Shown here: piece by piece, positions 9,830 through 61,302 of the stretch
How the letters are laid out: each line of letters begins with the position of its first letter
Numbering within the stretch: the stretch's first letter is position 1
Assembly: GCA_045586965.1 (NCBI GenBank)
Contig: JAZNBJ010000037.1
Location: 587 to 64,586, forward strand
From: Candidatus Gastranaerophilaceae bacterium
Lineage (GTDB): Bacteria; Cyanobacteriota; Vampirovibrionia; Gastranaerophilales; Gastranaerophilaceae
Length of the DNA stretch: 64,000 bases
Direction of reading: 5' to 3'
Notes under the pieces: generated by a model
Seen by the model: the letters and a program-made list of their open reading frames with translations, nothing else
Databases searched by the model: none
What the model was told of the DNA's origin: nothing
Made by a program: the position numbers and the translations under genes

Positions 9830-12800
9830 TCACATCATTCTCTAAAAGCTTTCCATTTCTCGATCGATGTTTGACAAACGACCAATCTGTTTAACAACAG
9901 GGAATATTCTAGCAGTTTTGTTTAAAAGTTTGTTATCAAACAAATGTTCACCGCTCTGATATTCTTCCAATGGAGAAAATACTTGTGTAAATGCTCCAAT
10001 TATATCATTTATATAAGTAATAGAAGGGAATGGGTCTTTCAAAATCTTTGTGAATGACAATGGATTTACAAAGAACGTCAAATCTGTATATAACCTATAC
10101 ATATGATAGCGTATGTTGGAAACAACTACATTTGGTTCATCATCATCTCCTCCGGAAGAACCTAAAACAGAATATGCCAAATAAGAAAATGCGGCAACTC
10201 CGATTTCAACCAAAAATCTTATAAAGTCTGCTTTTTCTGTATTTGATAACTCGTTCCATTTTCTAGCCTGAATTTTTGCCTTTTCCAACCTTAATAAGTT
10301 ATATCCGACAAAACTAACAAGTGGTGCAACATACGGATTGTATATAAATGCATATTGTGCACCCCAACGATAAAAGCCTTTTCTATTATCCCCTAATATT
10401 TCATCGTAATATTCTGCAGCAAAACGTCTATTGAAGTTTGAAGCAATCCAGCGGCGCAAACTCAAACCCATTATACCATACCATTTTGATTCTGCTAATA
10501 CAGAAGCTCTATCACTATAATTACCATGTAACAATATAAGATTCTAACGTAGCTGTAAAGAAAAACTAGTGACATCGTCTCTATTAAAATTTGCAACTTT
10601 GTCATCTACTTCTAACTCCATGTCATCATTTATTTTAATAAAATCCAACATACTTCCAAGAACATTTCCATCTTTATCTTTTGCTTGAAGTTCTATAAGA
10701 CTTGCTAACATAAAACGAACTTGCATTTCATGTTCGCCAATGTGTGTAGTTAAATAACCATAATCGCTGAAAGAATGTCGCAGTAAACCTTTTAACGATA
10801 AGTTGAAATCAGAATCAAATATATTAAAGTATTCAGCTAATCTGTTGTATTGATTGTTTGGCACTAACTCCAAATAATCTTTTGCCATGCTAAAGACACC
10901 TGTAGCATATAACTTTGTAGCTCTTTTGTAAGACTTTAATGAAACGAATTGACCACACAAAGCTTCTTCCAATTGATTTATTTCTCCGACTAACGGATTA
11001 TTAAACAAACTGACCGGATTTAACATCATCACACGATTTGATGTAAGTTTAACCCATAGTTTTATTAACTTTGCAATGTCTACTTTATGTCCTGTTGGCG
11101 TTTCAAATCCACCTATATCTTCAAGACTATTACCATAAAATACAGTGTTTAACCAACCTTCAAATTGATCTCTTGTGTTTGTTTGGAATGAAGAAGTTCT
11201 CTCCTTTTGTTGATTACTTTTGTTCTTTCCAAGTAAAGATACCTTGTTTTTATCGTATGTTTTACGAGTAGATAAAACATTTGCTGTCTATAACGCAAAT
11301 GATTCTATTTCGCGTTTTGCCACATGTGTTTGCGCAGAATCATACCATTTTAGATATATTGTAGGCAAGTCAAATGATTGTTCGTCTTCGTTAAGTTCAC
11401 CTATATAAAACATAGGAACACTACGTATAGGATTTCCCTATTGGTCAACAAAAGTACCTCTGATTGTGTCATCTTTCATTATCAAACTACTTTGTTGAAT
11501 ACCGCTCTTTAAAGCAGAAACAGCTCCGTTTGCGGCAACGCGTTCCATTCCACGTTTATAAATTCCAGGTAATCTTCCGTTAAGACGCAAGTTTCTGTTA
11601 ATTTGAGAATCCATTTCTGAAACACCTTCTACCAAAACTTGATATAAAGCAAACTTAGGATCATTCGTTTGTTTTAATTGCATCATTTTATCATACTTCT
11701 CATTCTTATATAGAGTACGATCAGGCTTTCTGTACTTAACTTCAAGCTCATAGTCGGTTATTTCTAAGAAATCTTTTGTTTCAGAACTAATCTTTTCAGA
11801 GCGATATAATTCACCAAGACTCTTTCTTTGATTTACTGGGAGTTTTTCATTTTCTTTGATGATTTGAAGCTCTTTTTTTCTAACTTCTTTATTTTCTTCT
11901 TCTTCAAAGTAAGCGTTTAACAAGGATTCTCTTTCTTGATTGTATGCTGCAATATCGTGTATTGGGCAATTTACATCTAACCATTTCTTGAATTTCTCTT
12001 GTTTTTCAGCAAATGATAATTCTGACTAACTGTCAAATATTTCTTCTTTTGCTTTCCTTTCAGCATCTCTGTATTTTATACCTTGTGGAGAAATTAAGTA
12101 AACCTGACCAGTTTCTGATACTTCTACGAAATCTTTGTAGACATCTTTTAGAATAGAAGTGTTGCCAACTCCATATTTTTTCTAAAACTCTTTTACAGCC
12201 TTAGCCAGTTTTGCACGGTATCTGTTCACTTTCATTTGTTTTATTGACATTTTGTAATCAAACATCTTAACAAAAGCCTAAACAAACGGATCTTTTGAAT
12301 AATAAACACTGTCTAAGGATACAGACAAACCGCCACATTCAAATATGTTTTCAGCTATTTCGGATTGTTGTCTTAACCATTCCTTAGTTTCAAATTCAAT
12401 TTCTTCACGATTTTCTTCTATGTATTTTGCTACATACGCGTCTATATCTTTTTGAGATGCATTTGGATGCTTTTCTTTATACTTTTGAGTAGCTTCTTTT
12501 TTATATTTGTATTCTATTCTAGAGATGTAAGGTGTTATAGCATCTATAAACAGTCTGGTTCCCTCTGAATTGTAAGCAGCTACAATGTTTCTCTAAAGTT
12601 CAGAAAGCTTGTTACATTGAATGTCAAGAGCCCTAACACGTTCATCTCCAAGTATACTTCTATACTTGTGAGCAAGACCTGTTATGTCGTTTATAATAGA
12701 ATAACCGTTAGCGACTTCTCTATAGTCTTGTAAAACATCCAAATCCCAAGTAGCTTCATCTCCTTGCTTATAACGCTTTTCTATGGCATCATTTAATCGC

Positions 12801-15238
12801 TGCAACTGTTTTGTTGCATATTCTGCATACTTAAATAATGCCTCTAGTTCTTCTAATTCTGATATTTTTTCTAACAAGCGTTTTGCGTCATATGCTTGAG
12901 ATCTACTTCTTTTTCTTAGTTTCAAGATTTCGTGTTGAATATTCAAACGAGTGATAACTTTATCCAAAACCCTACGTGTATCCTTTATCATTTGAGTTCT
13001 TTTCTTAGCCTCTTCTTCTTTTATTTCAGAAAAGTCTTTAAATACACGAAGATTTACGTCATCTTTTATAAATTGAGGAGTAATCAACTCATAAAAACCA
13101 TTTTCTTTCAGTTTAGCTTCACCTTCTTTGTGAGTTAAATCTTCACGATATGCTCTATATATACTACTTATATAACCTGCAGTAACATAATCATTGCTAA
13201 TGTAATATGTTATAGGAATAATACCTTTTCTTGCTATCTTTATTCCTTTTTTCTCAAGCATTTTCGAGTATATACTTAACTGCAAATCATAACCGTCAGA
13301 CTGAGAAATTGTACCAAATTTTCTACTCAAAACATACTTAAATCCGTGTAAAGGTCTACCTTTTTCATTTTTATCTTTACCGTCTAATTTTAGAAGTTTT
13401 GTTTTGTAGTCCAAAAGTATATATTCACCAGTAGCCTTTTCTCTAACAATTAAGTCCGCAGTACCAGCAATACCTACTTCAGGGTCACTCAGCGTAACCT
13501 CAGATGCAACGTAATCATATTTCTCAGATATTTTATCGACAATCGCTTTAAAATACTTTATAGAGTCTTTTGCAAACATTTGATACACATCCTAAGGAAT
13601 AGGTTTATTCTCAAATAAACATTCCATTACTTTGTGAATGGCAGTACCTCTTTCTCTTGCATTTTTTGACATTTTCTTTTGAATGTCATCTTCTGCAGAA
13701 GGATCGTAGTCAGAGTAACCTATCTACTCCTTTATCATAGTAGTACGGATTAATTTCTTACCAGTTCTAGTATCTATATATAAACCAGTTTCTGGATCTA
13801 AAACAATACCTTCCTAAATTTCATTCAATATTTTACGAGCTGCCTCTATTGGCATATTGGTCATTTCTTGATGTTTTACTCCTGATAATATGTCTGATGT
13901 TTGTCCTAATTGTCTACGCTCTAAAAACGCATCAGTTATCTCCGCTAGCAGCATTTGTTTAGCAAGTTTATTTTTATTTAACATTTTTTTGATAAAATCA
14001 ATAAACTTCTGCCACCAATTGCGTGCCTTACCTTCCATCTCTACAGTACGAACACCAACAGCTTGTACAAGAGCTTCTTCACTACCAAATGTTTCTATAC
14101 CTTTTTGAACAAGAGGGGTACCTTTGAACATAGCAATATAGTAGTGAGCATATTCGTGTGGTATTGTATCAAGTCCAGATTCTAAATTGTCTATAAGTAC
14201 TTTTAAAGCATTTAAATCAATCTCACCAACATAACCTCCTTCTATAGAATCAACAAATTCTACAGATATTTCAGGGAATAATTGACGTAGTACCGTAGAC
14301 AATCTTTGTGATAAAGCCCATTCTTCTGTAGTAAAATGTTTTCTACGGTTATTTATACCAGTTTTCTTTTGATGATATATGTTATTATCTACAGTAGAGA
14401 AATTACCATTGTTGTCTATATGTTTGATTTGGTTTGGTTCGAAGACAACCAATTGTGTTTGTTTGGAACGATAGTCATCAGCATCATTGTCAGAATCAAC
14501 CACTGTTAAGACGTAACCGTCTGTATTTTCATCGCCAATCTGCTTTGCCCGATGTATAAAACTTTTTAAATCTTCCTGCACAGACGTATAATTGCCTATG
14601 TGCGGGTCAAAACCGGTTTCAATACCCTGCTGTTGTGCAACAATAGGGGTTTTTATGTTTAAAAACACAGGTAAAACTTCGCCGAATTCAACGTTGCCTG
14701 TGCCAAACGATTCTGGTTTTGAAGCGTATTCGATTTTGGCAATACGAGGATCAGTTATAAACCAGAATCCAGATATTTCTCTAGGTCTGTGTTCCGATCC
14801 AATCTTTTGTTTATCAAATATGGCAATGGGGGTGTTTGTGCGATTGCCGTGATAAACAACCAAAGGTTCACCATTCTCATCTACTACTTTGGATACATTT
14901 GTTGTATCTTCAGAAGTCCAATCTCCAAACCAGTTCTTAAATGCCTCAGAATACGTATTTGCTTTAGCTCTGATGGCTTTTTGTCTGTCACCGTAGTGAT
15001 TTATCAAAGACTTAAATAAAATAGATTCTGAGCCATTTGGAGCTTTATCTATAGGGTTACCCTAATTCTAATCCCAAATATCATATGCTGCATCCATTGC
15101 TGCTGCATCTGTACCTGTTCTCAATAGTCTGAGTTCTTTGTTCCTGAACTCTTCAATAGTTAACGGATTGCCACCTAAAGCGGTGACAATCTCGTTAAAC
15201 TCATTTCTTATTTGTTCATTATTTATATTTGGACACAT
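9830..15238 (-). CDS. giant polyvalent virion protein (about 1,802 codons): ART-like N-domain, HExxH zincin, PD-(D/E)XK nuclease
   Basis: The frame runs from ATG 15238-15236 to TGA 9832-9830 with 13 in-frame TAGs and no other stop, except a short out-of-frame stretch at about 12300-12435. Motifs: VVDENGEPLVVYHG (about 14850), HEYAH at 14144-14158, and GTADLIV...YILLDYKT at about 13403-13456. The track's apparent end, TAG 9842, is followed by RMM and then TGA. Confidence 0.7.
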
Positions 15239-15249
15239 AATATGTTATT

Positions 15250-18200
15250 TTAGCATTTTTCACTAGGTCTTTGTTTTTTAGTTTCGTTCTGATGTTGCTG
15301 TACAATGTCAGGGTTACTTTCGAATAGATTTAATTGTTTGTCACTTATAAATCTAGCTTTAAACGCTTTTTCATTAGTAATGTCAACCCCTTTTTCGTTT
15401 CTAAATTTCCAATTAGATGTTGTATGCACTTCATTTGGTATACCTAATCTTTGCGCAGCTATTATACCAGCTTCATCTACACCAGTTTGACCACCGCTTC
15501 TAATTTCAGATATTACTACACCTTGAGATTGAAGATATTTTAATGACTCTTCTACATACGAATTAACTTCTTCTTGAGTCCATCCTTTTCCAAACAAAGT
15601 GTATATACCGTTTCCGGCTATATTTATTTTCACAGGTCTATTTAAAGCTTTGGCTTTTTCTGCAACTTGTTCCAATTTTGCACGGTCTATTGTACGTTTA
15701 CTCATTCTAATTGGAGCGTACTTATTTTTTGCACTTTTTGCAGTAAGCTCTTCTCCACTTGTGCTAAAATCTTCTGCGAAAGCAAGGGTTATGTCTGACC
15801 AAACAGCATTGTCAATGGTTCTTTGTTTGTAATCAGAAGACCTTGCTGTAGTGAATCTAGTTTGTGTAGAAGTGGTTTTATTTGATTCATTATTTTGATT
15901 TTCTTGAGAATTGTACATTTTCACTCCGCTAAAATTTATACGATTTATTTCTTTTCCACCAACAGCGTCAAGTATTCGTTGAACAACAGGATTTTCCTCA
16001 TCACCAACGACTAATACCGAACGGTGTTCGTCAGAAACAGGAATAACATCATCTGTAGATGTAATCACATGAAATTCTTTATCTTTATATTCTGAATATT
16101 CTTTCATCAAAGATTCTGAAGGAATTCCACTTGGAACAAAGTAAACTACATCGGAAGCATCTACCGCGACATTTACATCAAACACCCGCATCACATCGTG
16201 TGAATTAGAATATTTAGAAAAATCTATAACTTCATCAGCAGGTATCATAGCCAAGGGAGAAATACGTTTAACAAGGGCAGCTTGCTGTTTTTCATCCAAT
16301 TCGGTGTGATTTGACGCAGAACTATTTGCATCTGCATTAAATAACGATTTAATGTTACCTGTTTTTGTATCAATATAACCGTCTGCTCTTAACGAGTAAG
16401 CCGATAATTTTGAATTTCTATATCCTAGTGGAGTTATTCTATAATAAATAGGATTTGCGTAAACATTGCCATTTTTAGCTTTTACTAAAGTAATGTCTCC
16501 TAATTTATATAACGTAACTACACCGTTTGCGTCTTTAAGTTTGATAAATTTTTGAAAGGTTCCTTGTTCTTTCTACATCAGTTCATATGAACCGTAGCTT
16601 ATGTAAGCAATAGATTTATCGTTGAAAGGGAACATTCTATTATCCGCCTTTATTACAGGAACTATTTCATCGTCACTTGTAGCAACCATTTCCATTATCA
16701 AATCTAACATTGATTGTGGAAGAGAGCCGTGTCCGAGTCTACTAGGATCCATTACATATTTAGAAATGTAATCATTGTATGTACCATAACTTCCAGCAGT
16801 AATATTTGCTAAATGTTGTGGAGGTAATAAATCAAATAAAGAAGTCTTGATCAAACCACCTGCATTTGAATCCGTACCAGCAGTAACATAAAACATATAC
16901 ACAGCAAAATCTTTTACCCATTGTACTATTTCAGGATTACTACTGTTAAACAAATCACTAATTGCCATTTGAACAGCGCTTTTTGTAGTTTCATCATTTC
17001 TAACATCATCGTTAATGTTAAAGAACTGAGGATTCTTACTTTCAAATAGAGGATTATATTTTACATTTAAGAAGAAGTCATCTCCAATTCCTTCTAAAAG
17101 CGCAGCCGTTTTGATTTTGTTAAATCTAGCCCCAACACTATTTGGTCCTGTAGTCAAACTTAACAAAGGAACTGTTGTTTCTGGGAATCTGTTGAACAAA
17201 TATTCATTGAAGAATGGTAATAGCATTGCTGCTTTTATTCTAGGTCCAACAACACGTAAGAAGTTTTTACTAAACCTTCCGTATTTTCCATATTGCTTAG
17301 ACAGTTCATCTGCTGTGTTTTTGTATATCTCGCTAAATTCAAAGATTGTTTGATTGAACGCATTAAACATTCCCAACACACCTTCTAGGTATTTCTTACC
17401 TAAGAATGTATCATTGAACAAAACTTCTGGGTTTTCAAAAGTATCGTTGTATGGGGACACAACACGATCCATTAACTGCATAAAGCTTATTATTTGATCT
17501 GCAGATATACCATATTTTTTTGTATCTATTTGAGCTACAGTTATTGCGTCATGATATGCTTGTGCTTTTTCATTCAAACGAATAAATGTATTCAAATATC
17601 TTAATTGCTGAGCATACCATTCTGTACTTCTTTGATCTTGTGGTACATCAGCCTGAGCCTTCAAGTAATCAATTTCCATTTCTTTAGCAGAAGCCATTTC
17701 AAAAACAGGTCTTCCAGCAAAATCAGTGTATTCGTATTTAACGAAATCCAAGTATCTACTTCCTTTACTAAGCTGCGGATTTACACCAATGTGACCCTGT
17801 TTCCAGTTCTACCAGTTTTTAGCAACAGAAACAAGCACAGGTTGAGTTAAAAACGCAAATGTATCATTGCCAAATCCAGCGCTGGTCATAAATGCGGTTA
17901 TGTCATATGTATAACCGTTTACATTCATTGCACCAATATAATTGTCTTTAACAGCATCTACGTGTGCATTGATCAAAGCTGATGTAATATCAAGAATATC
18001 TTCTCCGTTTCTGTCAAACAGTTCAGAAATACTCTTAATACCAAGATCTTTCAAAAAGTCATCATTTCTTAATTTAAGACCCGCCACTTGTGTAAAGAAT
18101 CGGAATACTGAATTCAACGCCATAGGGCCGATACCATTATCAGATCCTGCATTTTTTACCTTCTGTGCAGTTTGGAATATTGGATTTAGATAGTATCCGT

Positions 18201-43805: not shown

Positions 43806-43830
43806 AATTGATTTGTTTTAAATTGATTTA

Positions 43831-45795: not shown

Positions 45796-45887
45796 AGTTG
45801 TATGGTTTTATGATTAATAACAAGTTAACAAAACCATATGATAAATAGTTTGATACATTAACACCCAACAAGTTATGATAATAGCGT

Positions 45888-46430: not shown

Positions 46431-48044
46431 TTATTCGTAGTATACATCTGTGTCTATCGTATTACCAGACATAGCATTTCCGTCTGCCATTACACAAAGT
46501 GTATTTATATCAAACCAATTATCTAAAACAGAACTAGAACCTTCTTTAAGAGTATTTGGATCATCCGCCATACTTGCCATAAGTCTTATCTTACATCCTT
46601 GTCCAGACGATGGTTTTACCCAAAAGTCAGGGAAACGCAAATACAATTGCAACGTACCTTCTCCTGCAGTATATGTAGCGTCTACATTTGTGGTAGTACC
46701 ATTACCATTCCATTCGTCGTTTGTCATTTGCGGATCTAAAATTACCTCTGCTATAATTGGAGTTTGAGAGCCAGAAGCATTTGTACAATACGCTCCAAAT
46801 TTTATACTATTGCCTGAATAAGATTTATCTGCTGTTTTTATCACAAAACCTTCACCAACCTTTTTTTCAACTTTCATTTGAATATATAGTGTACTCGAAT
46901 ACGCAGATATATTTTGAGATTGTTGCGAAGTTGGAAGATCGCTAGTTTTAAACTGTATCCACGGACTATAACTAATATTATATCCCCATTTGATATTAGT
47001 TAAATTACGATTAAACCAACAACCGAATTGAATTGGCCAACAGAAGCCAGGATTACCGTAAAATCCTACATACCCTGGAGCTGGAATTATTGTACCTTCT
47101 ACAGAAGGATCTGTGGTAACAACAGTCATGTCGCCTGCAGGAACAGAGTTATTGTTTGGATTAAAAAATATTTCTTCATTTGGATTTCCATTTGCTTCTT
47201 GTAACGCTAACATGAAATTAACAGTAGGACCGTTTTCACCAATATGCCAATAATTATCAACACCATATAAGTAATCAAGACAATCTTTTACATTCATCAT
47301 GAAACGTGGAGCCTAGTCGTACAACAAAGTTCTAGAAAACCATTTGCCCAATAACTCATTAGGGTACACGGCTTCTGTCCAGCTGCCTTCAGCGCTAACA
47401 TGCGGCCACATTTCCACTGCAAATCTTAATTCAGGTTGTCTTTGAAAAAATTCGAGTGTTGATACAAAACCATTGTTGTTTCCAGGTAATGCGTCAAATT
47501 CGATTGTAAAGTTTGCGTTTGGAAATAAATTTACAACCTTTAGATTTCCTGTAGAATCTATTAGTTCTTTTACTTCTGTATGAGGTTCTATAATTATAGG
47601 AGCTTCCGCATTATCTCTATAATATTCAAAATCGGTAAGCCTCATCCAATTTGTATTTACTACTGGCTTTTGATATTCCCATGTATATTGACTAAAGTAA
47701 GTTAGTAACCAGTCTTTTAGCTATTTACCAGATCTCATTGAGCTTGACGGCTTTGCGTTTAACCCCCAAAAAACTTGAGCACCGTTATCACCTTCTTTAC
47801 TTGGATCTTCTGTAACGTTTACAATGGTTCCATCTTCTTTTACAAACTAAATTGTTGAATAAGGGATAGATTCATAACTATTATTTTTAGTTATGTACGG
47901 TTTATGTTTACTCCATCTATTTATCTAATTGCTGGTACAAGCCTCAGCCAGATCATAGTAAGCACCAGATGGAGATATACCTAATACATGGTATACATCA
48001 TCCTTTAAACTAATAGGAGCTGTAATATATCCATTACTATTCAT
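46431..48044 (-). CDS. tail fibre / receptor-binding-type protein (537 aa)
   Basis: The frame runs from ATG 48044 to TAA 46431 with TAGs at 47925, 47847, 47721 and 47313. It joins track ORFs 46431-47300 and 47313-47645. Confidence 0.6.
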
Positions 48045-48288
48045 TTTCTATATTATTTAATTGTTCTAACTCTTCCTATGCCCACACTTGTTCATATTGT
48101 TCTAACATATCTGCAGGCATTGGTATTTCTTCAAAATGTTCTGGTAATTCTAACAGAGGCTCCTCTAGTTTCTTACCATTCAGATAGTATGTGTAGCCCA
48201 GAGATATTTCTGGACCAAACACATAGCCATCACTAATACGTCTAAACGTATTACCTCGTTTTGTTACTTTAATTGTTATCGGTTTCAT
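48034..48288 (-). CDS. small protein (84 aa)
   Basis: The frame runs from ATG 48288 to TAA 48034 with TAGs at 48076 and 48037. Confidence 0.5.
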
Positions 48289-48290
48289 AA

Positions 48291-51200: not shown

Positions 51201-54083
51201 AACTTCTGTGTTCGGCGTAGAAGACGATACTAGGTTATAACCTTTGTCTACTAATTGAGTATATAAGTTTATTGTAGTACCTCCTGGGTCTGAAGGAATA
51301 AATTTACCTTCTGCCATTTCGTAGTAATACAAATCACCACCTGTAACCCAGAATTCGTATGGTTCGTTTTTATAAGTATCCTTGTTTGCATTTAATTCTT
51401 CCGCTGTACCTTCAAATGGTTTTATTCTGTCACTGCAAGAGTAAGCGAAATTATATGCAGGCATCCATAGTCTTTCATAAATCTCTTTAACTCCTGCGGG
51501 ATCTTTTTTACTGTCAGAAGCACCTGCATCATAATCCCAAGAGTTTTCACCATTGTATTGATAAGATTCCTCTGACGGATTATACGCCATGTAAGATTTA
51601 TTTGGATTCCAGGGAACTCTAAACAAAGCAAACAATGGAGCATTATCTGCACCTTCAACACTCAATAAATTAGGATAATCATCTGTATCATAACCAAAAC
51701 ACAAGTCGTCACCTTTATCCGGACCCATTGTATACAAACCTATGAAGTTGTATTTATACGTACCTTCTTCTGTAAGCACTTTCTAGAAACCGACAAAAGG
51801 GTATTGATACACGGCAATTCTAGCGTTAGCTTCGTTGCTCAATCCAAGTTGTTGCCATATATCGTTAAACGCTGCAACAGAACCCATCTTATGACTATGC
51901 ATAGACGAAGCAAAGTTCTTCTTAGCAGTAAGGCGCTTAGACTTACTTGGCTTAGTTGGATCTTTGGTAAATCTCAATTTCTTGCCTGTTGTAGTTTCTG
52001 AACCATCCGCATACGTCATAATACTATCGTCTGCGAATTTCCAACGCAGATTCCACTTACGGTATTTCATTGAAGATGTACCTTGACCTCCTACAGGTGC
52101 ATTCTGAACAGTAAAATTCCAATCAGGATGATCGGCAAAGAATACTTCTAAAGTACCAACAATATCTTCAGACGTGTTATCTATAGAGGGAACATCACAG
52201 TCTATTACGAAACAATTGTATTGGTCTACTGTATTATCGTAATCTATCTGAGAACCTTCAGAATCATATATATCATTTGCCAACGAAATTTCATTTTTCT
52301 GCCCAGTACTAACCAGCCAGTTTATATAATTTTGTTGAACCGCACTAGCAGACAAACCGTTGTTGTATATTCTAATTCCGTATATGTCAACATCTGCGTA
52401 ATCCGAACCCAAAGTTATAGGAGTGTTGTGTGCAAAATAGTCATTGTTTGCATAAACAAATTCACGATTCTTCACACCGTTTATGTATATCACAGCAAGA
52501 TTAAATGCGTCGTTACCATAAGCTTTAGGTACAATAGTCAAAGTAAGTCTTATTCTTTCTCTTTCACAAATATTTATACTCTGTAGCTCTTCATTCTTTT
52601 GGGCATTAGAAAACATTACAACCTTTTCAGGATATACCTTCAAACCCACAAATCGCTCAACATTTGTTGCAAGATTGGTTACAGTTTCATTATAATCTGT
52701 AATGTTGTCAATTAAGAAATCTATTTCTATTGTTTTACCTATAAGAGCAGATTCTTGAGCGAAAGGATAATAATCTAGTACAGCTTTAGCGCCACCCATA
52801 AGGCGTAATATTCTGTTACCTTCTTTATCTGTAGTCCAGCCATCATTACCCCAGTTCATTCCTGTCCAGGTAACATTAATTTCAGAACCATCAATTGTAT
52901 TTGTAGCTTTGAGATAATTGGCTTGGTTATTACTTCTAGTACGAGGATTCATATAGAATACAGCACCAGCGGTAGCACCAAAACTCAAAGAGTTATCCAC
53001 AGGTATTTCAATAGATTCTAACAAAGTATCATCTTGATTTAATAAGTTTATTAAGATCTCAAAGTCATCTTTAGAATTTGTTTCGATTTCCATTGGGAAT
53101 ACAAACTCATTTCTTTGTTCAGTATTAATGCTGTCTTCCACAGATTCATACACCGTGTGTACATCCATTATGGCCTGGAAGTTCAAATACGAATAAGATT
53201 TACCTCCGTCATACAAACAGTATTCAAACATCTTGTTTTCACTCCAGTTAACAGCTTTGTCTATAATATTATTTATAGCAACGAACTTTCCAGTTTCTCC
53301 TGGTGTGATACATATTACTTCTACGTACTTAGATTGAGTAAACAGTGTACCTTCTCCATTACTTAAGTAATACTCTATAGTATACACTCCTGACTTTCCT
53401 GGATGTTTTACAGTATAAGGATATGCTGTATCTGTATAAGTACTATTACCTAGATTGGTTTCATATATTTGTGAATATTCTTCTCCAGTTACCTTTACAA
53501 ACAGTTTCTTTGAAGTATTACCACTAATAAAAAATGGCATACTAAAGTCTTCTTGAAAAGCTCTCCACCATTGGAAATTAGGAGCATCTACACCAAGAGA
53601 AGTTAATTGCACAGTATAAGTAATAGGGTCCGTTTGCATATCTGTGTTCTTACCAATAATTTGTATTTTAATGTTATTGGAACCTGCTGTCAGATATTCT
53701 GCCACATCTAATTTGATTTCTACTCCAGATGCTGTTTCAAACTCTCTAACTACTGTATAGTCTGGATACTTCGCGTTGGTTACCATTACAGTACATAAGC
53801 CAATTTCTCCAGTAGGTTTATAACCTTCTGTAAGATCTTCCATATACTGGCTCACAAAAGTGAAATTCAATATAGCAGGAGTACCCGCTTGTGCAGCCAA
53901 TGTAAGCGAACTCAAATTGTTTTTGATATTGACGCTATACACTATACCACCTTCTCCCATAACAGCGTTACGCAGCAGTTTAACCATATCCACCAATGCA
54001 TTAAACTCCTATGCAGACAACTAATGCAATCTATCTGTTATCGCAATCTTATCCGATTTTACTGGTATTTCATCTATTGTCAT
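48291..54083 (-). CDS. giant tail fibre/host-interaction protein (1,930 aa) with CotH-like region
   Basis: The frame runs from ATG 54083 to TGA 48291 with 10 in-frame TAGs. It joins eight same-frame track ORFs (48291-48503 ... 51783-53996). GGQGTSSMKYRKWNLRWKF and NRAKNTYPY...WRGDDMDTIW resemble CotH motifs (rGnsS..KKs.klkf and hNyy.y...WDlD). Confidence 0.65.
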
Positions 54084-54097
54084 ATTCTATTATTATA

Positions 54098-54304
54098 TTA
54101 TCCACCAAACGTAAAACCAAACGTATAGGCGAAATATTTATTCTCATCAGCTTTAACTCTATCTTTAAGACGTATTATCTACATCAACATGTTGAAGTAG
54201 TCGGTTGATAGTAAGTCTTTTCTATCGCCAACTATTTCAACAGCACTGATAGTAACTTTTCCATTTTCTAAAGTAACACCTTCTGTTACCTTTAATACGT
54301 TCAT
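54098..54304 (-). CDS. small protein (68 aa)
   Basis: The frame runs from ATG 54304 to TAA 54098 with one TAG at 54179. It is not in the track. Confidence 0.4.
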
Positions 54305-54364
54305 ACTATTATATTTTTAATCACTAACGTTATGTTTTAAAACGTAAATATTATGTTGTAAAAA

Positions 54365-56380
54365 TTAAGTATTTGCACCAAGTGCAGAAAGGAATTGATC
54401 TGTGTATAATCCATAATTAGCTTTTATTCTATAAGGATTACTTGTAGAGCCATCTCCTTCTAATGTGAACATTTGATTTAGTTTATTAACTAACGCAAGT
54501 AGATCGTCAGCAATCGCCTATTCTGCAGCCTTTGCTCGACTTATTTCATTATTCAAATTAGTCGTAAGAGTTTGTTCTGCAGCCTCGGCCCTAGTTATTT
54601 CAGAATTCAGATTAGTTGTAAGTGTAGATTCAGCTCCTTTAGCCCTAGTAACTTCAGCATTTAAATTTGTAGTTAATGTAGCTTCTGCAGATTTAGCTCT
54701 TTCTACTTCCGCAGATACTGCGTTAGAAACACTAGTTATACTTTGACTTATGCTGTTTGTTTTGGTATCAATTTCAGATTTAGTATATACAGATATATCT
54801 TTACTTACAGTAATAACTGTACCACTTTTTGTTACATCTGTTACAACATTACCTGCACCAGCAGACTATATGTTTGTGGCACTACCTGCTTCAAGAGCTT
54901 CAACCCTCTCTGTCAAATCATCATCAAACTAATCAAGTTTGTTCCAACAGTCTATTAGATATTTGTCAGTTACTAATTCCCAGCTGTAAGTTCCATTCAC
55001 GTTAGTAAACTAATAAACTAATCCTTTTGTGGTAATATAGTAATCGTCTATATGTTCGTTCTTTAACGCTGTGGTAGTCCATTGATTAGCAGGAGCATTG
55101 CTTAACGTAGGAGCAGCTTCAGATTCACCTTGCCATACATAGAACGGGTTACCTTCTTCTCCGGTTTGTACTACTTGGTTTATCCAGTAACCATCTTGAT
55201 AAACAAGGCCTTCTCCATTCTAAGGACTACTTATATTTACCCCAGCTAAATCTTTTAAAGATATACCAGTAACAGAACCGTCACTTGGATTTAACCCTTT
55301 AGCAGATAAGAACTACTCTGTCCATAAACCGAATTTAGCCTATATAGATTCGATTGTAACAGAAGTATCATTGTTAACAGTTATCTCAGAACCATCTTCA
55401 CCAATTAAACCAAATACTTTACTAAAGAATGCTATATCCAGTTTAGTGGCTAAGTTTTCTTCAGTAGTTGTTTTAAATGCTTGTAAGTCATCGTCTACAT
55501 CAGATATACTCTGTTCTAACGTAGTTACAGCTTCAGCTAATTCCGTCTTAGTTGCTTTTGTAGCTAACTCAGTATTAATATCTGTAACAACACCGTCAAT
55601 ACGAGTATTGATTGTAGATACGGCTGTACTAAGTTCATCTTTACTAGCCTTTGTGCCAAGCTAAGTCTCTATACCTGATATAGAAGTATTTAAACCAGAT
55701 ATAGTAGAATTAAACGTAGAAGTATCTACTTTAGATGATATAGCATCTGTAATATCCTAAGTAGTAGCATAACTATTTCTACTTAAGTAATCCTCTAGCT
55801 AAGACTCATCTAAACCACCGCTTTCTATCAGCTGATTGATCCATTTTGTTCCATTCCATACAATAGACTAACCTTCATTTAATTCAGAAAACTATACATC
55901 ATTTAAAGAAGCTAAGGTTAAAGATACTTCTCCATCTGCTGGATTTAACCCTTTAGCAGAAAGAAATTCATTTGTCCATAAACCAAATTTAGCTTGAATT
56001 GATCTAGTTAGATCTACGACTCCGTCGTCGTGTAGATCTAATTCATTTCCATCTGCGTCAATTAAACCAAATACAGAACTAAATAAATCTTTACTTAGAT
56101 AATTGTCTAGCTAATCGGTTGTTGCTATCTCCTGTAATTTGTAATGCTTTTTACCATCTTCTGTAGAGATACTTTCGTCTGGGACAAGTCTATATGTTTT
56201 ATTATTCTCTGTTACAGATATAATCTAACCGTCTATGGGCACGTACTTGACATCATCCGTATTTGCAGCATATGTCTAAGCATCAGCCAACGTTGTCCAC
56301 ACCTCAGTGCTATCTATGCTCTTTGAATTTGTTCGTCTATACTATAAAGCAAACGACGCTCCGCTTATTTGTAATGCCAT
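54365..56380 (-). CDS. tail fibre with coiled-coil repeats (671 aa), completely missed by the ORF track
   Basis: The frame runs from ATG 56380 (2 nt after the upstream TAA) to TAA 54365 with 16 in-frame TAGs. It has serial ...TLTTNLN(A/S/N)E(V/I)(T/S)RA(K/E)(G/A)AE... heptad-type repeats and three copies of a (A/N)(K/Y)FGLWTxxFLSAxGxN motif. Confidence 0.65.
55287..55339 (-). repeat. 53-nt intragenic direct repeat, copy A
   Basis: About 44/53 identical to 55941-55993. It encodes the AKFGLWTE[TAG]FLSAKGLNP motif. Confidence 0.8.
55941..55993 (-). repeat. 53-nt intragenic direct repeat, copy B
   Basis: GGATTTAACCCTTTAGCAGA...TGTCCATAAACC.AATTTAGC is shared with 55287-55339. It encodes AKFGLWTNEFLSAKGLNP. 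Confidence 0.8.
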
Positions 56381-56382
56381 AA

Positions 56383-58011
56383 TTAGTTAGTTTTAAATGT
56401 AAATTTATCCGCATCGTTTTCAGTCTCAGTTTGTATCAAATACATTTTGTATTCAGATGCAGTATGTCCGTTAGCACCTTCTACCATGATTGTGCCATAA
56501 TACTGGCAAACACCAGTATCTTCTACAAAATTACCAGGATATGCGGTTAATGTTAAACTAGTTAAACTGTCAGAAGGAATACATATTACAAACTTTGTCC
56601 ATTTGCCTATATTGAAACTGTAAGTTCCAGCTCCTTTGTACAAACCATTACTATCCAAATTCCTTACCTCTGCAGAAGTAGTAGGTACTACATCTACAAT
56701 TCCAGCAAACCACTTTCTATATACATTTACAGATATTGTACTAGTTAATGTTTGTTGTGGTACTTCAAGTTCTTCGTTTGCGGCAAATACAACTGTAGCT
56801 TTGTAAGTTTCTCTTGCAGTATGCTGTCCTGTTAAATTTCTTGTAGCCGTTTGTTTACCAGATGAATCTTCTGCACTAAACGAAAGTTTACTTGCTGTAT
56901 TTCCATCATAGTAAGCATCTGTCATAGCACCGTTATCATTACGATATGTTGTATACGTTAAAGTACCCTTGGTAGATCCTATCTCTAAATCTGTACTAGT
57001 TGATATTTTACCAGACAATGTAGCAGGTGTTGCTTTATATAACATCTTACGGAATATCTCTTCCCAACTTGTACCTTTTGCAATTGTGTTTCCGTTAGAA
57101 TAATAACCTACAGTAGTTGTTACTAATATATCTTCTTCTAATACAGAACTGCCGCTATTACCACCTCCACCTGAGCCGGGTGTGCCATTTGGGCCTAATG
57201 CGCTGATAAAACTGTTACTAAAAAAGCCTCTGTCGTCAACAGGATATATAGCTCCTGTAGTTTCGTCTATGGCAAACCACTTATCCATTTCTTTGGAAAA
57301 ATATACGCCAAATTCAGATTTATCAACTTTTTCATCAAGTTTTTCATCTACATACGATTTCTTAGCGTAGTCCTTAAGATCTTCGTCGCTAACAGATCCC
57401 CCGGTCTATACAGTTTCATTAACCCAGTATCCGTTGCGATAAACTAACATCTAACCGTTGTATACAGGCTGACTTAAATGAACGTCTTGTAGTTCGTACA
57501 AATGACTATAAGGAGTATTGTCTGTACCAGAATCTCCAGAAGTACCTTTTACAGATATGAAGTGTTCTGTCCAGAAACCATATCTGGCTTTAATACTTGC
57601 AATTTCTGTAGTAGAATCATTTGGATCTATTTCATTACCGTTTGCATCAATTGCAACAAACAGTTTGTCAAAGTAATCATTATCTAATTTGTTATAGGCG
57701 TTACCTTCACCATCACCAATAATATCACTTATTGGTTTAGCAATCCATTGATTACTACCTTCAACTTGTACAAGAAATCTATCTTCTGTAGCAGCTTCAT
57801 TCGCCCAAGTACCGACATTGGTTAAGTCTCCTAAACCAAGTTCTACAGGCTCTTGTGAACCACCTCCACCTTGTATAATAACAGTACTGCCACCACCTCC
57901 AACCGCTGATGCAGTTGAAGATGATGGTGTTATGCCTCCAGAAGTAGTGTTTCCGTATACAGCTCCTGTTACAAATTTATTATGTTTTGTTCTATCAAGC
58001 TTCATATTCAT
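56383..58011 (-). CDS. tail fibre protein (542 aa)
   Basis: The frame runs from ATG 58011 to TAA 56383 with TAGs at 57451 and 57406. It joins track ORFs 56383-57288 and 57451-58011. It contains Gly-rich linkers and ARYGFWTEHFISVKG, related to the motif in 54365-56380. Confidence 0.65.
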
Positions 58012-58648
58012 TTAATGCTGCTACACCGCTTTGTGATGTAATGTTACCTACTGCACTAATTTCTCCACCAGCAGTCATATTTCCTGTAGTAGCAACAGAC
58101 AATACAGACAAATCACCTTTTATGTGAGTTGGGTTGATTTCTTCATTTGTTGGAGCGTTAAGTAATTCCCACATTAATGTAGAATCAAATCCAGTACCAG
58201 TACCTGAATTAGTGTTAACTGTCATATTAATCCATTTGTTAGTAGTAACATCATAACACAGAGCTTGCTTGTCTGACAGTGTTCCTGATATATTTACATC
58301 TGTCAAATCTCTAAGCATAGTCACAGCAGTAGCAGAACCTCCTACCATATTGTCTAGGTTAAAGTTAGTCCATCTGTCGCCGTCATAATGAAGAATATCA
58401 CCAACAGCTAACTCTTTGGAATCCAAATCAACATCTATCAAATTAGATAGTTTGTTTACAAAACCTATTTGAGTTTGCATCTAGGTAATATTTTCACTCA
58501 AAGTATTTACCTGCACATTTACTTCAGATAGTTCAGTCTTAGTTGCACGATTATCTACTTTAGTTTGTAACGTTTCGATGCTATTTGTATTTGACTTAAC
58601 TTGAGCCTATATTTTTAATAAAAGTTCTTCTATTTGTTCTAGTGTCAT
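57995..58648 (-). CDS. tail fibre-associated coiled-coil protein (217 aa)
   Basis: The frame runs from ATG 58648 to TGA 57995 with TAGs at 58607 and 58481. It overlaps the next gene by 17 nt. Confidence 0.6.
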
Positions 58649-58842
58649 AATACTACTAATTTATTCAATAAGTCTTTCAACTTATTCTATTGTTCTAAAG
58701 TAAGCTCGTATGGTTGTTCTAATAACTTTTCTATATACATAGCACACACCGCGTCTTGTATCGCTCTACGATCGTATGCTATATTGTATTTAGTTATTTT
58801 ATTATACTGCTTACTTATTGTATATAATTCTTTACTCAACAT
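58645..58842 (-). CDS. small protein (65 aa)
   Basis: The frame runs from ATG 58842 to TGA 58645 with one in-frame TAG. It overlaps both neighbours, including an ATGA overlap downstream. Confidence 0.4.
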
Positions 58843-59354
58843 AACGTACAAACCCCATTATTACAATATCTAGATTTACCTCCGTTACAACTAACACATG
58901 TTTTAAATGGCTTATTGTTTACGTTCATTTTTAGATCAATACTTAGCATTCTAGCTAGATCTTTGTAGTAATCTATCTGGTCATCTAACAGATTATTTGC
59001 TACAGCGTAATCCAATAACTATTGTTTCATCACAAACAGCACCATTCTATCTTTTTGTTGTTTATCCAAACATGTGCTACAGTAAGTAGTCATTAGTTCA
59101 ACTTGTCTGTAGTACAGTTCTTTCTTGTCATAGTAGAATGCGACTTCACCGTTTACATTTACTATAAATGCGCTTCTATCTAATTCTGGTTCTAACCACG
59201 ACAAAGGAAAGCTTATTGTATTATCCGCAACTGCGAATTCTTCTACCTTATATGTGTGATCTTCACTCTTTTCAGAATATTTGTTTTCTTCATTTTCTAC
59301 TATGTCAATGTAGATCGTTGGTATTGCGTCTACATCGTAAATCTGTTCAGACAT
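58836..59354 (-). CDS. protein with C-terminal Cys cluster (172 aa)
   Basis: The frame runs from ATG 59354 to TGA 58836 with one TAG at 59019. Cys motifs are CSTCLDK and, at the C-terminus, CVSCNGGKSRYCNNGVCTLC. Confidence 0.6.
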
Positions 59355-59408
59355 AGTTATTGATAATACATCTCCTAATATCTATATACCTATTATATTC
59401 ATAATACT

Positions 59409-59451
59409 AAAAATAAAAAGGGCTACTAGGCCATTACAGCCCAATAGCCCT
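59409..59451 (-). terminator. Rho-independent terminator after gene 59484-60482
   Basis: On the minus strand the stem is AGGGCTA...TAGCCCT, followed by TTTTTATTTTT (A-run 59409-59419 on +). Confidence 0.6.
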
Positions 59452-59483
59452 AAAGTTTAACTTAAAACCTGTAATTACTCAGA

Positions 59484-60482
59484 TTAGTCTTCTGCACCAG
59501 ATTCTTCTGATTCTTCTGATTCTTCAACAGCTCCACTAATGAAAGCTTGGATACCGCTTTCGATAGCCGAACCAGCCAAAGAAGGACAGTAAACTTCAGT
59601 AGTGATAGGAGTGCTCTTAACATATTGGTTGTCATTGCTCAAATACAAGTTATCGTTTTCGATGATAATGTAGTCGTATTCAGCATCAGCAACTACCATA
59701 CGTTCTTGTTCAATTGAAGGATAAGCACCAGTAAATACATGACCCTTATAACCCATGTTGCTTACTTCAGCGTCACGTACTTGCTTCCAGTAACCCTTAC
59801 CAGGTGTACCTTGAGTCTTAACGATAGTAGCACCAGCAACTTCCTTAGGTTGGTTCATAAACAAAGCATGAGGATCTGTAGTATACAAAGTAGCTTCCAT
59901 AGATACTACTGAGTATTGGTTCAATGAGTTAACACCTTCATTGTCATCCTTAGCAAAAGCAGTTAAAGTAATCTTAGCACCACTCAAAGCAGCTTGGATT
60001 CTGCGGTTAGCATGCTTGTTGATCTTAGCTACCAAAGCAGCAGCAACATCAGCAGCAGTAGTGCTTTCTGCATAAGTTTCGTAAGTGTGAGTAAATTGAC
60101 CTGGAGCTTCGTAGATGTCCTTGTAAACGATACGGATAACGTAACGGTTACCTTCAACGATAGTAGCACCAGTCAAGTTAATTTCGATCTTGTCTTGTAC
60201 AGGAGCTTCGTATTCACCTACTACAGCAGACTTAATACGCTTTTGAATCTAGTTAGAGTATTCTACGTTAGACTTGCTAGCAACTGAACCATCAGGCATA
60301 GTTACATTGATTTTACCCTTACAAACACCAATATACAAAGCGTTTGCTTCAGCAGCATCGGCTGCATCAATAATAGTCTTGTTTTCATCGAATAAAGCAA
60401 CATCACCTACTTGCATAGCATCTACTGTAGAAGCCTCAGTAACTTGCTTACCGATCAATACATTGTGAACTGATTGTATCAT
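59484..60482 (-). CDS. abundant-looking structural protein (332 aa) with acidic SEE-repeat tail
   Basis: The frame runs from ATG 60482 to TAA 59484 with a single TAG at 60249. It joins track ORFs 60249-60482 and 59484-60176. Codon usage is visibly GC-richer than in the neighbouring genes. It has its own leader and terminator. Confidence 0.7.
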
Positions 60483-60576
60483 GTTATAATAGTTTAAAAA
60501 AATTAGACATTAGCGCTTAGTCTATTCGCTTAGTTCTACTCCCTTTTACGGTTTCCACGTCCCAAGCGCCTTTTAA
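60483..60576 (-). promoter_or_regulatory. GC-enriched intergenic leader with direct repeats upstream of 59484-60482
   Basis: CGCTTAGT occurs twice on the + strand (60513-60520 and 60527-60534), with a third GCGC-containing copy nearby. On the minus strand, GGCGCTT and AAGCGCT can pair across about 45 nt. Confidence 0.3.
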
Positions 60577-61302
60577 TTATTCCATTGAGTTTATAATTTC
60601 CTAAGTATAGGAATTATATCTGGGATTAGCCTGGTTCTCAATGTACAGCTAAGCGGCTAACTTAACTATTTCTAAATGAGTATGTTCAGGCATATCTGTA
60701 TATTCGTCAAACGGGTTAGTGTGAATATCAATACGTTGAGGCTTTCTCAAGTAAGACATCCTGTAATTACTTACCTTATACTAACCGTCTGTGTGTAAAT
60801 AAATATTGTTACCTGCAATTAATCTAATTGGTTTAGCTTTGGTATATTTTAACTTATACTCTGATAAAGAATTCTCCTTTATTCTATCTATTGTTTCAAT
60901 AGTACCTTCTATTGTATCAGAATAATGTGAGATGTAATTACCTTCTTCATCTTTCTCCCAGCATTCATTCTCAATTCCATCTGCTGGAGCTATACCCGCT
61001 GTATCACCAAGTAAGATTACGTAGTCTTCAGGCAACTCTACTTGATACTCCTTACTGTTTAAAGTAACAATATCGTCTGTATATACTTTATTTGCTACTA
61101 ATGTACGGAGATCATCTGTACGTTTTTGAGTCTATTCAAAAGACTCTCTTTTAAAGTTATTTTCTGAATAACGAGTCTTCCAGAACTTATCAAGAGCCGT
61201 ATTCAAAAAGTATTCACTTATGTTTGTTTTCGGCTTTGTCAAGTTATCATCTAACTTGTTAAGTTCAATTTCAAACGACTCAAGTAGTTCTATGTTTTTC
61301 AT
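60577..61302 (-). CDS. head-tail joining-type protein, paralog 3 of a tandem trio (241 aa)
   Basis: The frame runs from ATG 61302 to TAA 60577 with TAGs at 61132, 60781, 60649 and 60601. It shares ...YFLNTA... and YLRKPQRI...MPEHTHLEIVKLAA with the two upstream genes. Confidence 0.6.

Follow-up and report, generated by a model that had tools for sequence, protein, structure and literature searches.

Recoding of the stop codon TAG is well documented in crAss-like phages (PMC7886860; PMC9523058), and the locus described here is a new example of a known phenomenon. In late genes, TAG-to-Gln recoding has been reported for phages of groups Beta, Delta and Zeta (PMC7886860), and the Suoliviridae phages cr53_1 (NC_055889, Blohavirus) and cr125_1 (NC_055900, Aurodevirus) both have late genes of this type, as does the window, i.e. 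the whole 64-kb stretch of DNA that was analysed. In RefSeq, the annotation of relatives, e.g. cr53_1, already includes TAG read-through and a tRNA(CUA); as many as 40 in-frame TAGs occur in a single late coding sequence there, and the late coding sequences terminate with TAA or TGA, as do those of the window. The phages investigated by Peters et al. (PMC9523058) also carry TAG-interrupted structural genes, and peptides spanning TAG-encoded Gln were found in them, together with use of the standard code in early regions; these are, however, other genomes, 94 kb and 191 kb in size. In the model of 10.1101/2021.08.26.457843, the alternative code is shared by structural and lysis genes as a single unit, as in the window, and recoding was proposed as a regulator of late genes and lysis, with TAG occurring preferentially in lysis genes. 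A few families favoured TAG over CAA/CAG in that study, including a spanin; the corresponding examples in the window are the spanin-like, 154-aa, 153-aa and fibre-like genes. The holin of the window carries no TAG and differs in this from the lysis pattern described there.

A preliminary description of the DNA, made without database searches, had proposed a recoded crAss-like lineage, and this was borne out by matches to the Pfam families Crass_capsid, crAss_MUZ and CrAss_Ring. The capsid C-terminus matched Crass_capsid with E=2e-56, while crAss_MUZ, CrAss_Ring_1 and CrAss_Ring_2 gave matches on relatives of 97% identity. At both DNA and protein level, the best matches were cr53_1, cr115_1, cr125_1 and cr114_1, all of them Suoliviridae, which points to a Suoliviridae-like (Delta group) crAss-like phage; formal family placement takes TerL, portal and whole-genome trees, which lie beyond the window. 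The nearest DNA relatives were Logan contigs with 91-97% identity. The gene order capsid, ring/adaptor, tail, lysis, ring/muzzle, giant virion RNA polymerase (vRNAP), polyvalent protein and convergent replication module is common to the window and the cr53_1 type. Identity to phages of this type was about 74% for DNA over 1 kb and 25-74% for proteins, and ring protein 1 of the window showed at most 70% identity to any classified phage. Because these identities are low, the window represents a distinct, unclassified lineage.

TAG as a sense codon in the minus-strand late block

In the minus-strand late genes at 9830-61302, TAG was confirmed to be read through as sense. The features of the late module are as follows.

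9830-61302, minus strand: late block with TAG as sense, 24 large genes and 4 small ORFs
9830-15238, minus strand: polyvalent cargo-type protein, 1802 aa, ART-PolyVal ADP-ribosyltransferase domain, 13 TAGs; N-terminus homologous to cr53_1 gp56
15250-31242, minus strand: giant protein, 5330 aa, 23 TAGs
31247-35538, minus strand: two virion protein genes of 662 aa (2 TAGs) and 766 aa (8 TAGs), homologues of cr53_1 gp58 and gp59
35540-39802, minus strand: muzzle protein, 1420 aa, crAss_MUZ and crAss_MUZ_C, 14 TAGs
39799-41935, minus strand: ring protein 1 (306 aa, 4 TAGs), a 154-aa protein and ring protein 2 (252 aa, 2 TAGs), all three genes coupled by ATGA overlaps
41963-44412, minus strand: four small virion or unknown genes of 153 aa (6 TAGs), 133 aa (0), 193 aa (0) and 305 aa (1)
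44443-46283, minus strand: lysis cassette, including a spanin/LysB-like 210-aa gene and a 40-aa ORF
45072-45569, minus strand: holin, no TAG
45888-46283, minus strand: Peptidase_M15_3 endolysin, 131 aa, 2 TAGs
46431-58648, minus strand: tail/fibre-like genes of 537 aa (4 TAGs), 84 aa (2), 1930 aa (10), 671 aa (16), 542 aa (2) and 217 aa (2); no match in a Pfam search of these genes
58836-61302, minus strand: three genes of 188 aa (2 TAGs), 332 aa (1; 70% identity to cr53_1 gp82) and 241 aa (4; weak similarity to ring protein 3/4)
61305-63999, minus strand: continuation of the late module, 0 TAG; ring 3/4-like, adaptor-like, a 250-aa protein (74% identical to cr53_1 gp85) and the capsid C-terminus
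63616-63999, minus strand: major capsid protein (Crass_capsid), C-terminal 127 residues

With TAA and TGA as the only stops, 24 tightly packed, ATG-started genes of 84 to 5330 codons were obtained at 9830-61302, containing 129 in-frame TAGs; two more in the four small ORFs between them gave 131, in agreement with the about 130 claimed in the preliminary description. No internal TAA or TGA occurred in the 16,724 codons of the late genes, and the terminators were TAA in 15 genes, TGA in nine and TAG in none, as had also been claimed. In three genes (9830-15238, 39799-40719 and 48034-48288) a TAG is found among the final 1 to 4 codons; their product would be near-identical with TAG as stop or sense, and their termination is ambiguous. 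Elsewhere in the window the terminators were four TAA in the head genes and 12 TAA and two TGA in the early genes. In the two other frames of the same late genes, TAA and TGA together made up 5.0% and 9.7% of codons, so that chance cannot account for stretches of 1400 to 5330 codons free of stops. The longest minus-strand ORF grew from 1267 to 5334 aa once TAG was read as sense, whereas it stayed at 1267 aa when TGA or TAA was read as sense instead. Coding density of the block was 71% with in-frame table-11 ORFs of at least 60 aa and 97.5% with TAG as sense. The tight coupling of genes that had been noted was also found, with four 4-nt ATGA overlaps (39799, 40716, 41177 and 45072), one TAATG overlap (62054) and numerous intergenic gaps of 1 to 4 nt. 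A predicted reduction from about 60 fragments to about 35 genes held for the fragments, of which table 11 yielded 54 to 68 of at least 60 aa, but the merged genes in the interval numbered only 24 to 28.

Homologues did not align to the separate fragments only; similarity was continuous over the TAG positions. Single alignments to PHROG and Pfam profiles, among them the crAss ring and muzzle families, covered TAG-containing stretches, and cr53_1 proteins aligned end to end with the read-through proteins of the window. The C-terminal third of the 5330-aa protein proved homologous to the virion RNA polymerase phi14:2 gp66 (PDB 6VR4, E=1e-23), in an alignment that runs over four TAGs, and contains the metal-binding motif GSDFDIDKM (DxDxD signature, DFDID). 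If TAG were an ordinary stop, the late genes would be truly fragmented, be it as pseudogenes, through assembly or sequencing errors or as many short genes. Fifty-four in-frame table-11 ORFs of at least 60 aa do have a start codon, and a suppressor tRNA is absent from the window. The frames are, however, broken by TAG only, at off-frame TAA and TGA frequencies of 5-10%, single profile and PDB alignments cross the TAGs, relatives keep the TAG positions or exchange them for CAA/CAG, and the essential muzzle gene contains 7 to 29 TAGs in each of 83 relatives. Termination at TAG, which has next to no probability, was effectively refuted by this evidence from frame, homology and conservation, and the interpretation given in the preliminary description was supported overall.

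Glutamine at TAG positions

Comparison with relatives shows that TAG stands for Gln in the late genes of the window. Wherever a TAG fell on a conserved column, this column was always Gln, as for three of the 14 TAGs of the muzzle gene. Across 83 relatives, the DNA at muzzle columns 49, 1022 and 1349 was CAA, CAG or TAG only, and at column 338 it was one of these codons or, in a few cases, GAT. Opposite the TAGs of relatives, Gln was the commonest residue in the window (21.8% versus a background of 2.9%, i.e. 7.5-fold), and 22 of 50 window TAGs were opposite CAA, CAG or TAG in cr53_1. In two relatives with 91-97% DNA identity, 41 of 49 and 33 of 45 TAGs were conserved, and Gln codons were the commonest replacement (5 of 8 in L083 and 4 of 12 in L084). 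In a public protein collection, gene callers already render the TAG of relatives as Q. TAG accounted for 17.6% (about 18%) of Gln codons in the late genes, and for 4 of 5 in the 154-aa gene, 6 of 9 in the 153-aa gene, 7 of 14 in the spanin/LysB-like gene and 16 of 31 (52%) in the fibre-like 671-aa gene.

Many window TAGs lie on variable columns opposite N, E, D, K, S or T, and the relatives L037 and L051 carry a 91-nt tRNA(CUA) with a long variable arm, the shape of a class II tRNA. Both observations would fit insertion of an amino acid other than Gln, such as Tyr, Ser or Leu via a suppressor with a long variable arm. This is nevertheless very unlikely, given the exclusive use of CAA, CAG or TAG by relatives at conserved columns, the enrichment of Gln opposite their TAGs and the proteomic detection of Gln in other crAss-like phages (PMC9523058).

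Partition of TAG use and source of the suppressor

TAG use is split by module, early genes being depleted and late genes rich, with the exception of the leader of a resolvase gene. The features to the left of the late block are as follows.

59-9734, plus strand: replication module with DnaB-like helicase, AAA_24, DnaG-type primase, HNH/NUMOD4 endonuclease, AAA ATPase and others
6785-7177, plus strand: DUF1064/endonuclease-I-like gene, 'Holliday junction resolvase' in the annotation of relatives
9738-9771: palindromic hairpin with a 14-bp stem

The hairpin lies in the 95 nt that separate the converging replication and late modules and is probably a bidirectional terminator. Apart from the resolvase gene, the replication module contained no in-frame TAG in 2997 codons and its stops were TAA or TGA only, so that it reads alike under both codes. 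The early genes have 79 CAA/CAG codons; at the late share of 17.6%, about 17 TAGs were expected and none was observed. In 80 relatives the TAG rate was 0.07% in early and 1.9% in late genes, and the replication genes of cr53_1-type phages are nearly TAG-free as well. The late module runs on past 61302 to the window end (61305-63542 and 63616-63999), where the lack of TAG is not significant (13 Gln codons only, P about 0.08).

A code 15 used constitutively by the whole genome and the host, with no switch during infection, would agree with the finding that no gene of the window ends in TAG. The avoidance of TAG in the replication genes would, however, be needless if TAG always meant Gln. In early genes of cr53_1, 7 of 13 TAGs are among the final 12 codons of the annotated ORF, which would be expected of a TAG that still acts as a stop in these genes, and the known and predicted hosts (Bacteroidota) use the standard code (10.1101/2021.08.26.457843). 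A constitutive code is thus extremely improbable.

The partition is far better described, and with high confidence, by a Delta-group (Suoliviridae-like) crAss-like phage with two coding regimes, i.e. TAG-free replication genes and late genes in which TAG is Gln. The replication genes (plus strand, 59-9734), in which TAG is avoided, would be translated correctly by the unmodified host machinery, while the virion, lysis and virion RNA polymerase genes (minus strand, 9830-61302) use TAG as a Gln codon and end in TAA or TGA only. As judged from relatives and the literature, a Gln-charged suppressor tRNA with anticodon CUA would outcompete release factor 1 (RF1) during infection; it would usually be phage-encoded, just upstream of the terminase gene, and its locus would sit past the right end of the window. 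Full-length products of TAG-containing genes would appear only with the suppressor tRNA present, which would shift the production of structural and lysis proteins to late infection. The supE gene of E. coli encodes a tRNA-Gln with anticodon CUA, which in classical amber suppression corrects mutations with partial efficiency. The chemistry would be alike, a CUA tRNA inserting Gln at UAG in competition with RF1, but supE acts partially, whereas in the window suppression is obligatory for the decoding of about 130 codons in essential genes and appears tied to the infection phase.

ARAGORN detected no tRNA in the 64-kb window and Rfam no family, an absence that is uninformative since the tRNA would be expected upstream of TerL, a region not covered by the window. 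The cr53_1 record includes this locus, with a tRNA(CUA), annotated tRNA-Gln, about 350 nt upstream of TerL; the window ends before it. At the corresponding place, within 10 kb upstream of the capsid C-terminal end, a tRNA(CUA) was present in 8 of 40 IMG/VR relatives. The tRNA(CUA) genes of relatives fell into at least four types that are not related to each other, one of which has a long variable arm, and the charged amino acid is therefore not guaranteed to be equal across lineages. The low frequency of 8 in 40 and the lack of a tRNA in the window would also suit decoding of TAG by a host or non-canonical factor, or leaky read-through combined with RF1 inhibition, in place of a phage tRNA(CUA). 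A suppressor was detected in only about 40% of TAG-recoded phages, leaving about 60% with none detectable (10.1101/2021.08.26.457843), and a related recoded 101-kb Segatella phage reportedly has none (10.64898/2026.08.21.746148). Decoding without a phage tRNA is nonetheless rather unlikely, as cr53_1 and several relatives have the tRNA at the expected locus. Also, at a read-through of 90% per codon the ORF with 23 TAGs would be completed in only about 9% of cases, so that read-through per codon would have to be near-complete.

A TAG-bearing gene in the replication module

The preliminary description had confined sense TAG to the late module. This held for 9830-61302, but the plus-strand resolvase gene at 6785-7177, outside this interval, also requires read-through. 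Its in-frame TAG is codon 8 (6806-6808), located after the ATG and before the conserved core. An N-terminal TAG in this gene is common to cr53_1-type phages and the window, and of 80 close relatives, 79 have kept the TAG at codon 8. The word 'resolvase' is absent from 10.1101/2021.08.26.457843, where a TAG in a resolvase leader is not described. A TAG-bearing gene inside the replication module counts against the reading of two coding regimes with late timing. The TAG at codon 8 may act as a translational timer.

TAG read-through in the late module

The window has a G+C content of 34.4% and consists of two convergent modules, with plus-strand genes at 59-9734 and minus-strand genes from 9830 to the right end; the sign of the GC skew flips at about 9.8 kb. 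With stops restricted to TAA and TGA, the region 9830-61302 of the minus strand contained 24 genes starting with ATG, from 84 to 5330 codons in length, which included 129 in-frame TAGs. The larger gaps held four small ORFs, adding two TAGs. Fifteen of the 24 genes ended in TAA and nine in TGA, and no gene in the window terminated at TAG. In the remaining two frames of the late genes, TAA and TGA together accounted for 5.0% and 9.7% of codons, indicating that stop-free runs of 1420, 1802, 1930 and 5330 codons are not accidental. The longest ORF on the minus strand measured 1267 aa under the standard code and 5334 aa with TAG as sense; in control calls with TGA or TAA as sense it remained at 1267 aa. 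Coding density of the late block was 97.5% with TAG as sense, compared with 71% for in-frame ORFs of at least 60 aa under the standard code (table 11). At the gene junctions, ATGA overlaps occurred four times and a TAATG overlap once, and several genes were separated by just 1 to 4 nt. The preliminary description, which had given about 130 in-frame TAGs, about 60 table 11 fragments, termination at TAA or TGA throughout and frequent tight coupling of genes, was accurate on these points. The re-call with table 15 (TAG as Gln) that it had proposed confirmed its observation of TAG as a sense codon through the late module and supported its interpretation; only its figure of about 35 genes was too high for this interval, in which 24 to 28 were counted.

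Three late minus-strand genes carried a TAG 1 to 4 codons ahead of the TAA or TGA, namely 9830-15238, 39799-40719 and 48034-48288, the C-terminal ends being …SFxRMM, …IYNxL and …NIENEx, respectively (x = TAG). Former TAG stops may have left these codons behind; the number of such genes (three, with about 0.9 expected by chance) was not significant.

Megablast matches were obtained with cr53_1 and cr115_1 only. The RefSeq Suoliviridae relative cr53_1 (NC_055889, Blohavirus) showed complete synteny at the protein level, beginning with the gene that follows the capsid gene and extending to the two giant genes at the end of the late module. Together with the capsid, muzzle and ring protein matches, this bore out the suggestion of a recoded crAss-like lineage, and the window is, judged by sequence, a Delta-group (Suoliviridae-like) crAss-like phage.

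Predicted features of the window
59-9734, plus strand: replication module (DnaB-like helicase, AAA_24, DnaG-type primase, HNH/NUMOD4 endonuclease, AAA ATPase)
9830-15238, minus strand: 1802-aa protein with ART-PolyVal ADP-ribosyltransferase domain (domain match)
15250-31242, minus strand: 5330-aa protein with virion RNA polymerase (phi14:2 gp66, PDB 6VR4, E=1e-23; GSDFDIDKM motif)
35540-39802, minus strand: muzzle protein (profile/family matches)
39799-40719, minus strand: ring protein 1 (profile/family matches)
41177-41935, minus strand: ring protein 2 (profile/family matches)
45072-45569, minus strand: holin (profile match)
45888-46283, minus strand: endolysin, Peptidase_M15_3 (profile match)
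63616-63999, minus strand: major capsid protein, C-terminal part (Crass_capsid, E=2e-56; partial ORF at window end)

The best classified phage for ring protein 1 showed about 70% identity, with none closer, and the closest sequences were two Logan contigs, L083 and L084, which were 97% and 91% identical in DNA across 13 kb. By these comparisons the window is a new, unclassified Suoliviridae-like lineage, which is thereby added to the list of code-15 phages. The virion RNA polymerase forms the C-terminal third of the 5330-aa fusion protein; in family detection, most of the length of this protein and of the 1802-aa protein matched no family. The capsid gene crosses the right end of the window. 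Homologues of its C-terminus in the protein database were short, exon-like pieces of 112 to 221 aa with at most 93% identity, none of about 490 aa, which fits the MCP genes split by group I introns in Delta-group crAss-like phages (PMC7886860).

A hairpin at 9738-9771, with a perfect 14-bp stem (AAATAAGGTATACC...GGTATACCTTATTT) followed by a T-run, is situated in the 95-nt gap separating the convergent modules and is probably a bidirectional terminator. The endolysin of the window (45888-46283, minus strand) is a complete 131-aa Peptidase_M15_3 domain with no insertion. The endolysin genes of L083 (2459-3925) and L084 (2460-3926) carry a 357-codon in-frame insertion after ...SKTSQH, which starts with Cys, ends in ...VILGN and is followed by Cys; from these features it looks like an intein with a body of homing-endonuclease size. 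The insertion-free allele has Met at the +1 position.

TAG-to-Gln or TGA-to-Trp recoding was described by Yutin et al. for 243 crAss-like phages, mostly members of groups Beta, Delta and Zeta and mostly in late genes (PMC7886860). Stop-codon recoding in crAss-like phages was also analysed by Borges et al., and TAG-to-Gln recoding was proved by metaproteomics by Peters et al. (PMC9523058). All sequence-level membership tests placed the window among the recoded phages, and RefSeq already annotates the late CDSs of cr53_1 as continuing across in-frame TAGs, as many as 40 per CDS, the same phenomenon as in the window. The recoding found here is a new example of the phenomenon of Yutin et al., its biology already known; with the general phenomenon established, proteomics included, it holds no surprise for a specialist. 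The main value lies in correct annotation. Under the standard code, the 24 to 28 genes of the late module are called as 54 to 68 fragments (60 aa or longer), and roughly one quarter of coding sequence is lost. The muzzle and ring proteins, the lysis cassette and the 5330-aa virion RNA polymerase protein would go unseen; the window therefore needs annotation with TAG as Gln.

Meaning and distribution of TAG

Alignments with homologues continued across TAG positions. The 154-aa protein, with four TAGs, matched phrog_12177 in a single aligned stretch (residues 10-152), the full Peptidase_M15_3 model matched the endolysin across two TAGs, and the 6VR4 alignment of the RNA polymerase passed through four. 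Homology was thus not confined to the separate fragments; such confinement was the outcome that the preliminary description had named as contradicting its reading. Of the 14 TAGs of the muzzle protein, an alignment of 81 full-length homologues placed three at Gln columns that were nearly invariant and another three at columns in which Gln was commonest. Assignment of Gln from such database alignments alone was rejected as partly circular, since these proteins had themselves been translated with TAG as Q, and the test was therefore repeated by codon-level analysis of the DNA of relatives (83 for the muzzle gene; L083 and L084).

At this level, muzzle column 49 was occupied by CAA in 55 relatives and TAG in 28, column 1022 by CAG in 43, CAA in 21 and TAG in 19, and column 1349 by CAA in 69, TAG in 10 and CAG in three. 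Of the TAGs in the 83 relatives, 21.8% stood opposite a window Gln, against a background of 2.9%. Window TAGs were conserved at 41 of 49 and 33 of 45 positions in two close relatives, and their commonest replacements were Gln codons (5/8 in L083, 4/12 in L084). In the cr53_1 alignment, 22 of 50 window TAGs were opposite CAA, CAG or TAG. Because of the muzzle Gln columns, the excess over background, the replacements in L083 and L084 and the cr53_1 alignment, the meaning of TAG deduced from codon comparison is glutamine. The analysis shows, at the level of DNA sequence, late-gene TAG decoded as Gln in the window, with TAA and TGA as the sole predicted terminators.

Across the 24 late genes, TAG accounted for 17.6% of Gln codons, with 498 CAA and 104 CAG making up the remainder. 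Its share was 52% in a 671-aa fibre-like gene, 50% in a spanin-like gene and 67-80% in the 153-aa and 154-aa genes, but 9% in the giant gene, and the holin had none. This uneven usage matches the published preference for TAG in a few families, including a spanin (10.1101/2021.08.26.457843). The late genes past 61302 (61305-63999) contained no TAG and only 13 Gln codons, so that a special avoidance of TAG in these head genes was not accepted (P ~0.08). The first 100 codons of the late genes at 9830-61302 held 39 TAGs, compared with 25.9 expected, a count reached in 0 of 20,000 within-gene permutations among Gln codons, and the first TAG occurred at most 71 codons from the start in 17 of the 21 TAG-containing genes. 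The same test in cr53_1 gave 57 TAGs against 50.4 expected (P=0.07); 5′ enrichment as a general rule of late genes was not reproduced.

The replication module was shown to read identically under both codes; the resolvase gene apart, it contained 79 CAA/CAG codons and no TAG in 2997 codons, compared with about 17 expected at the late-gene share. In 80 relatives, 1.9% of late-ORF codons were TAG, compared with 0.07% in replication ORFs. The split between low-amber replication and high-amber late genes, on which the proposal of a timing role for recoding in late-gene translation is based, was thus reproduced.

Suppressor tRNA genes and decoding

For decoding, a Gln-carrying tRNA with anticodon CUA would be made during infection and would compete with RF1 at TAG, and TAG-containing genes would be fully translated only once this tRNA is present. 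Searches of the 64-kb window for tRNAs and RNA families gave no hit of any kind, and the suppressor locus is expected beyond its right end. An exact 40-mer taken from that end had no match among viral or metagenome contigs, nor was an identical protein found for three proteins of the window. In cr53_1 a tRNA(CUA), annotated as tRNA-Gln, is located about 350 nt upstream of TerL, and 8 of 40 IMG/VR relatives had a tRNA(CUA) at the corresponding place, which lies past the right end of the window; the 97% relative L083, a 19.9-kb contig, stops short of TerL. Surveys have detected a suppressor in just some 40% of phages with recoded TAG (10.1101/2021.08.26.457843), and none was reported for a 101-kb recoded Segatella phage (10.64898/2026.08.21.746148).

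tRNA(CUA) genes in sequences of relatives
L001 (cr53_1): 6664-6738
L016: 195-269
L043: 43-117
L019: 1949-2028
L037: 188-278
L051: 5-95
L052: 385-462

By sequence, the tRNA(CUA) genes found upstream of the terminase in relatives fell into four or more unrelated types; one type is 91 nt long and has a long variable arm, the shape of a class II tRNA. This diversity raises the question whether every lineage inserts the same amino acid at TAG. In an isotype reading from sequence, the cr53_1 type had a U1-U72 mismatch and A73.

In the early genes of cr53_1, 7 of 13 TAGs were among the final 12 codons of ORFs annotated in RefSeq with code 15 (e.g. gp37, gp31, gp25, gp23, gp21, gp42 and gp01). This is expected if TAG is a true terminator there and the code-15 annotation over-extends the ORFs, and it suggests that TAG still terminates early genes of cr53_1. 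A switch during infection would accordingly seem a better fit to these near-terminal TAGs than a constitutive code. In the early genes of the window no near-terminal TAG of this kind was observed.

The amber codon in the resolvase leader

The sole TAG of the replication module was found in the following gene, which shares 60% identity with cr53_1 gp51, an annotated Holliday junction resolvase.

6785-7177, plus strand: resolvase gene (DUF1064 / endonuclease-I-like)
6806-6808, plus strand: TAG at codon 8 of this gene

The gene begins with a Lys/Arg-rich leader (ATG AAA AAA AAG AGA AAT AAA TAG GGA), and the conserved core starts directly after the TAG, with no ATG, GTG or TTG between the two. The cr53_1 homologue has TAG at codon 4, the only near-N-terminal TAG among the genes of its replication module. 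A TAG between ATG and core was present in 79 of 80 IMG/VR relatives, which are not independent lineages; their leaders were short and basic, with 21 distinct sequences, and the TAG followed the ATG by 3 to 25 codons and preceded the core by 0 to 19. No alternative ATG, GTG or TTG start was found among these relatives. At ordinary invariant Gln sites of the relatives the share of TAG was only about 12-34%, which suggests that what is kept in the leader is the codon itself rather than the residue.

A tentative reading, to which we give somewhat less than even weight, is that the leader TAG acts as a built-in translational timer, by which this DNA-branch-cutting nuclease would be made only after amber suppression starts. 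The resolvase, in an early/middle transcription unit, would stay untranslated until suppression is available. The leader TAG is not a universal trait of recoded Suoliviridae, being absent from the recoded cr7_1; in the standard-code cr1_1 the leader contains a Gln codon of the ordinary kind, and that of cr118_1 is short and lacks Gln. No description of the resolvase-leader TAG was found in the literature searched. Beyond the already-known recoding, this single and easily mutated codon is possibly a case in which the timing model can be tested, and a candidate for testing amber suppression as a timer.

A free-standing NUMOD4 + HNH_3 homing-endonuclease ORF (6241-6804, plus strand) was located between the primase and resolvase genes, as were two small ORFs (5666-6157). 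Together these ORFs are probably a mobile insertion, since the primase and resolvase genes overlap directly in cr53_1. The TAA stop of the NUMOD4/HNH_3 ORF is situated 1 nt before the resolvase leader TAG.
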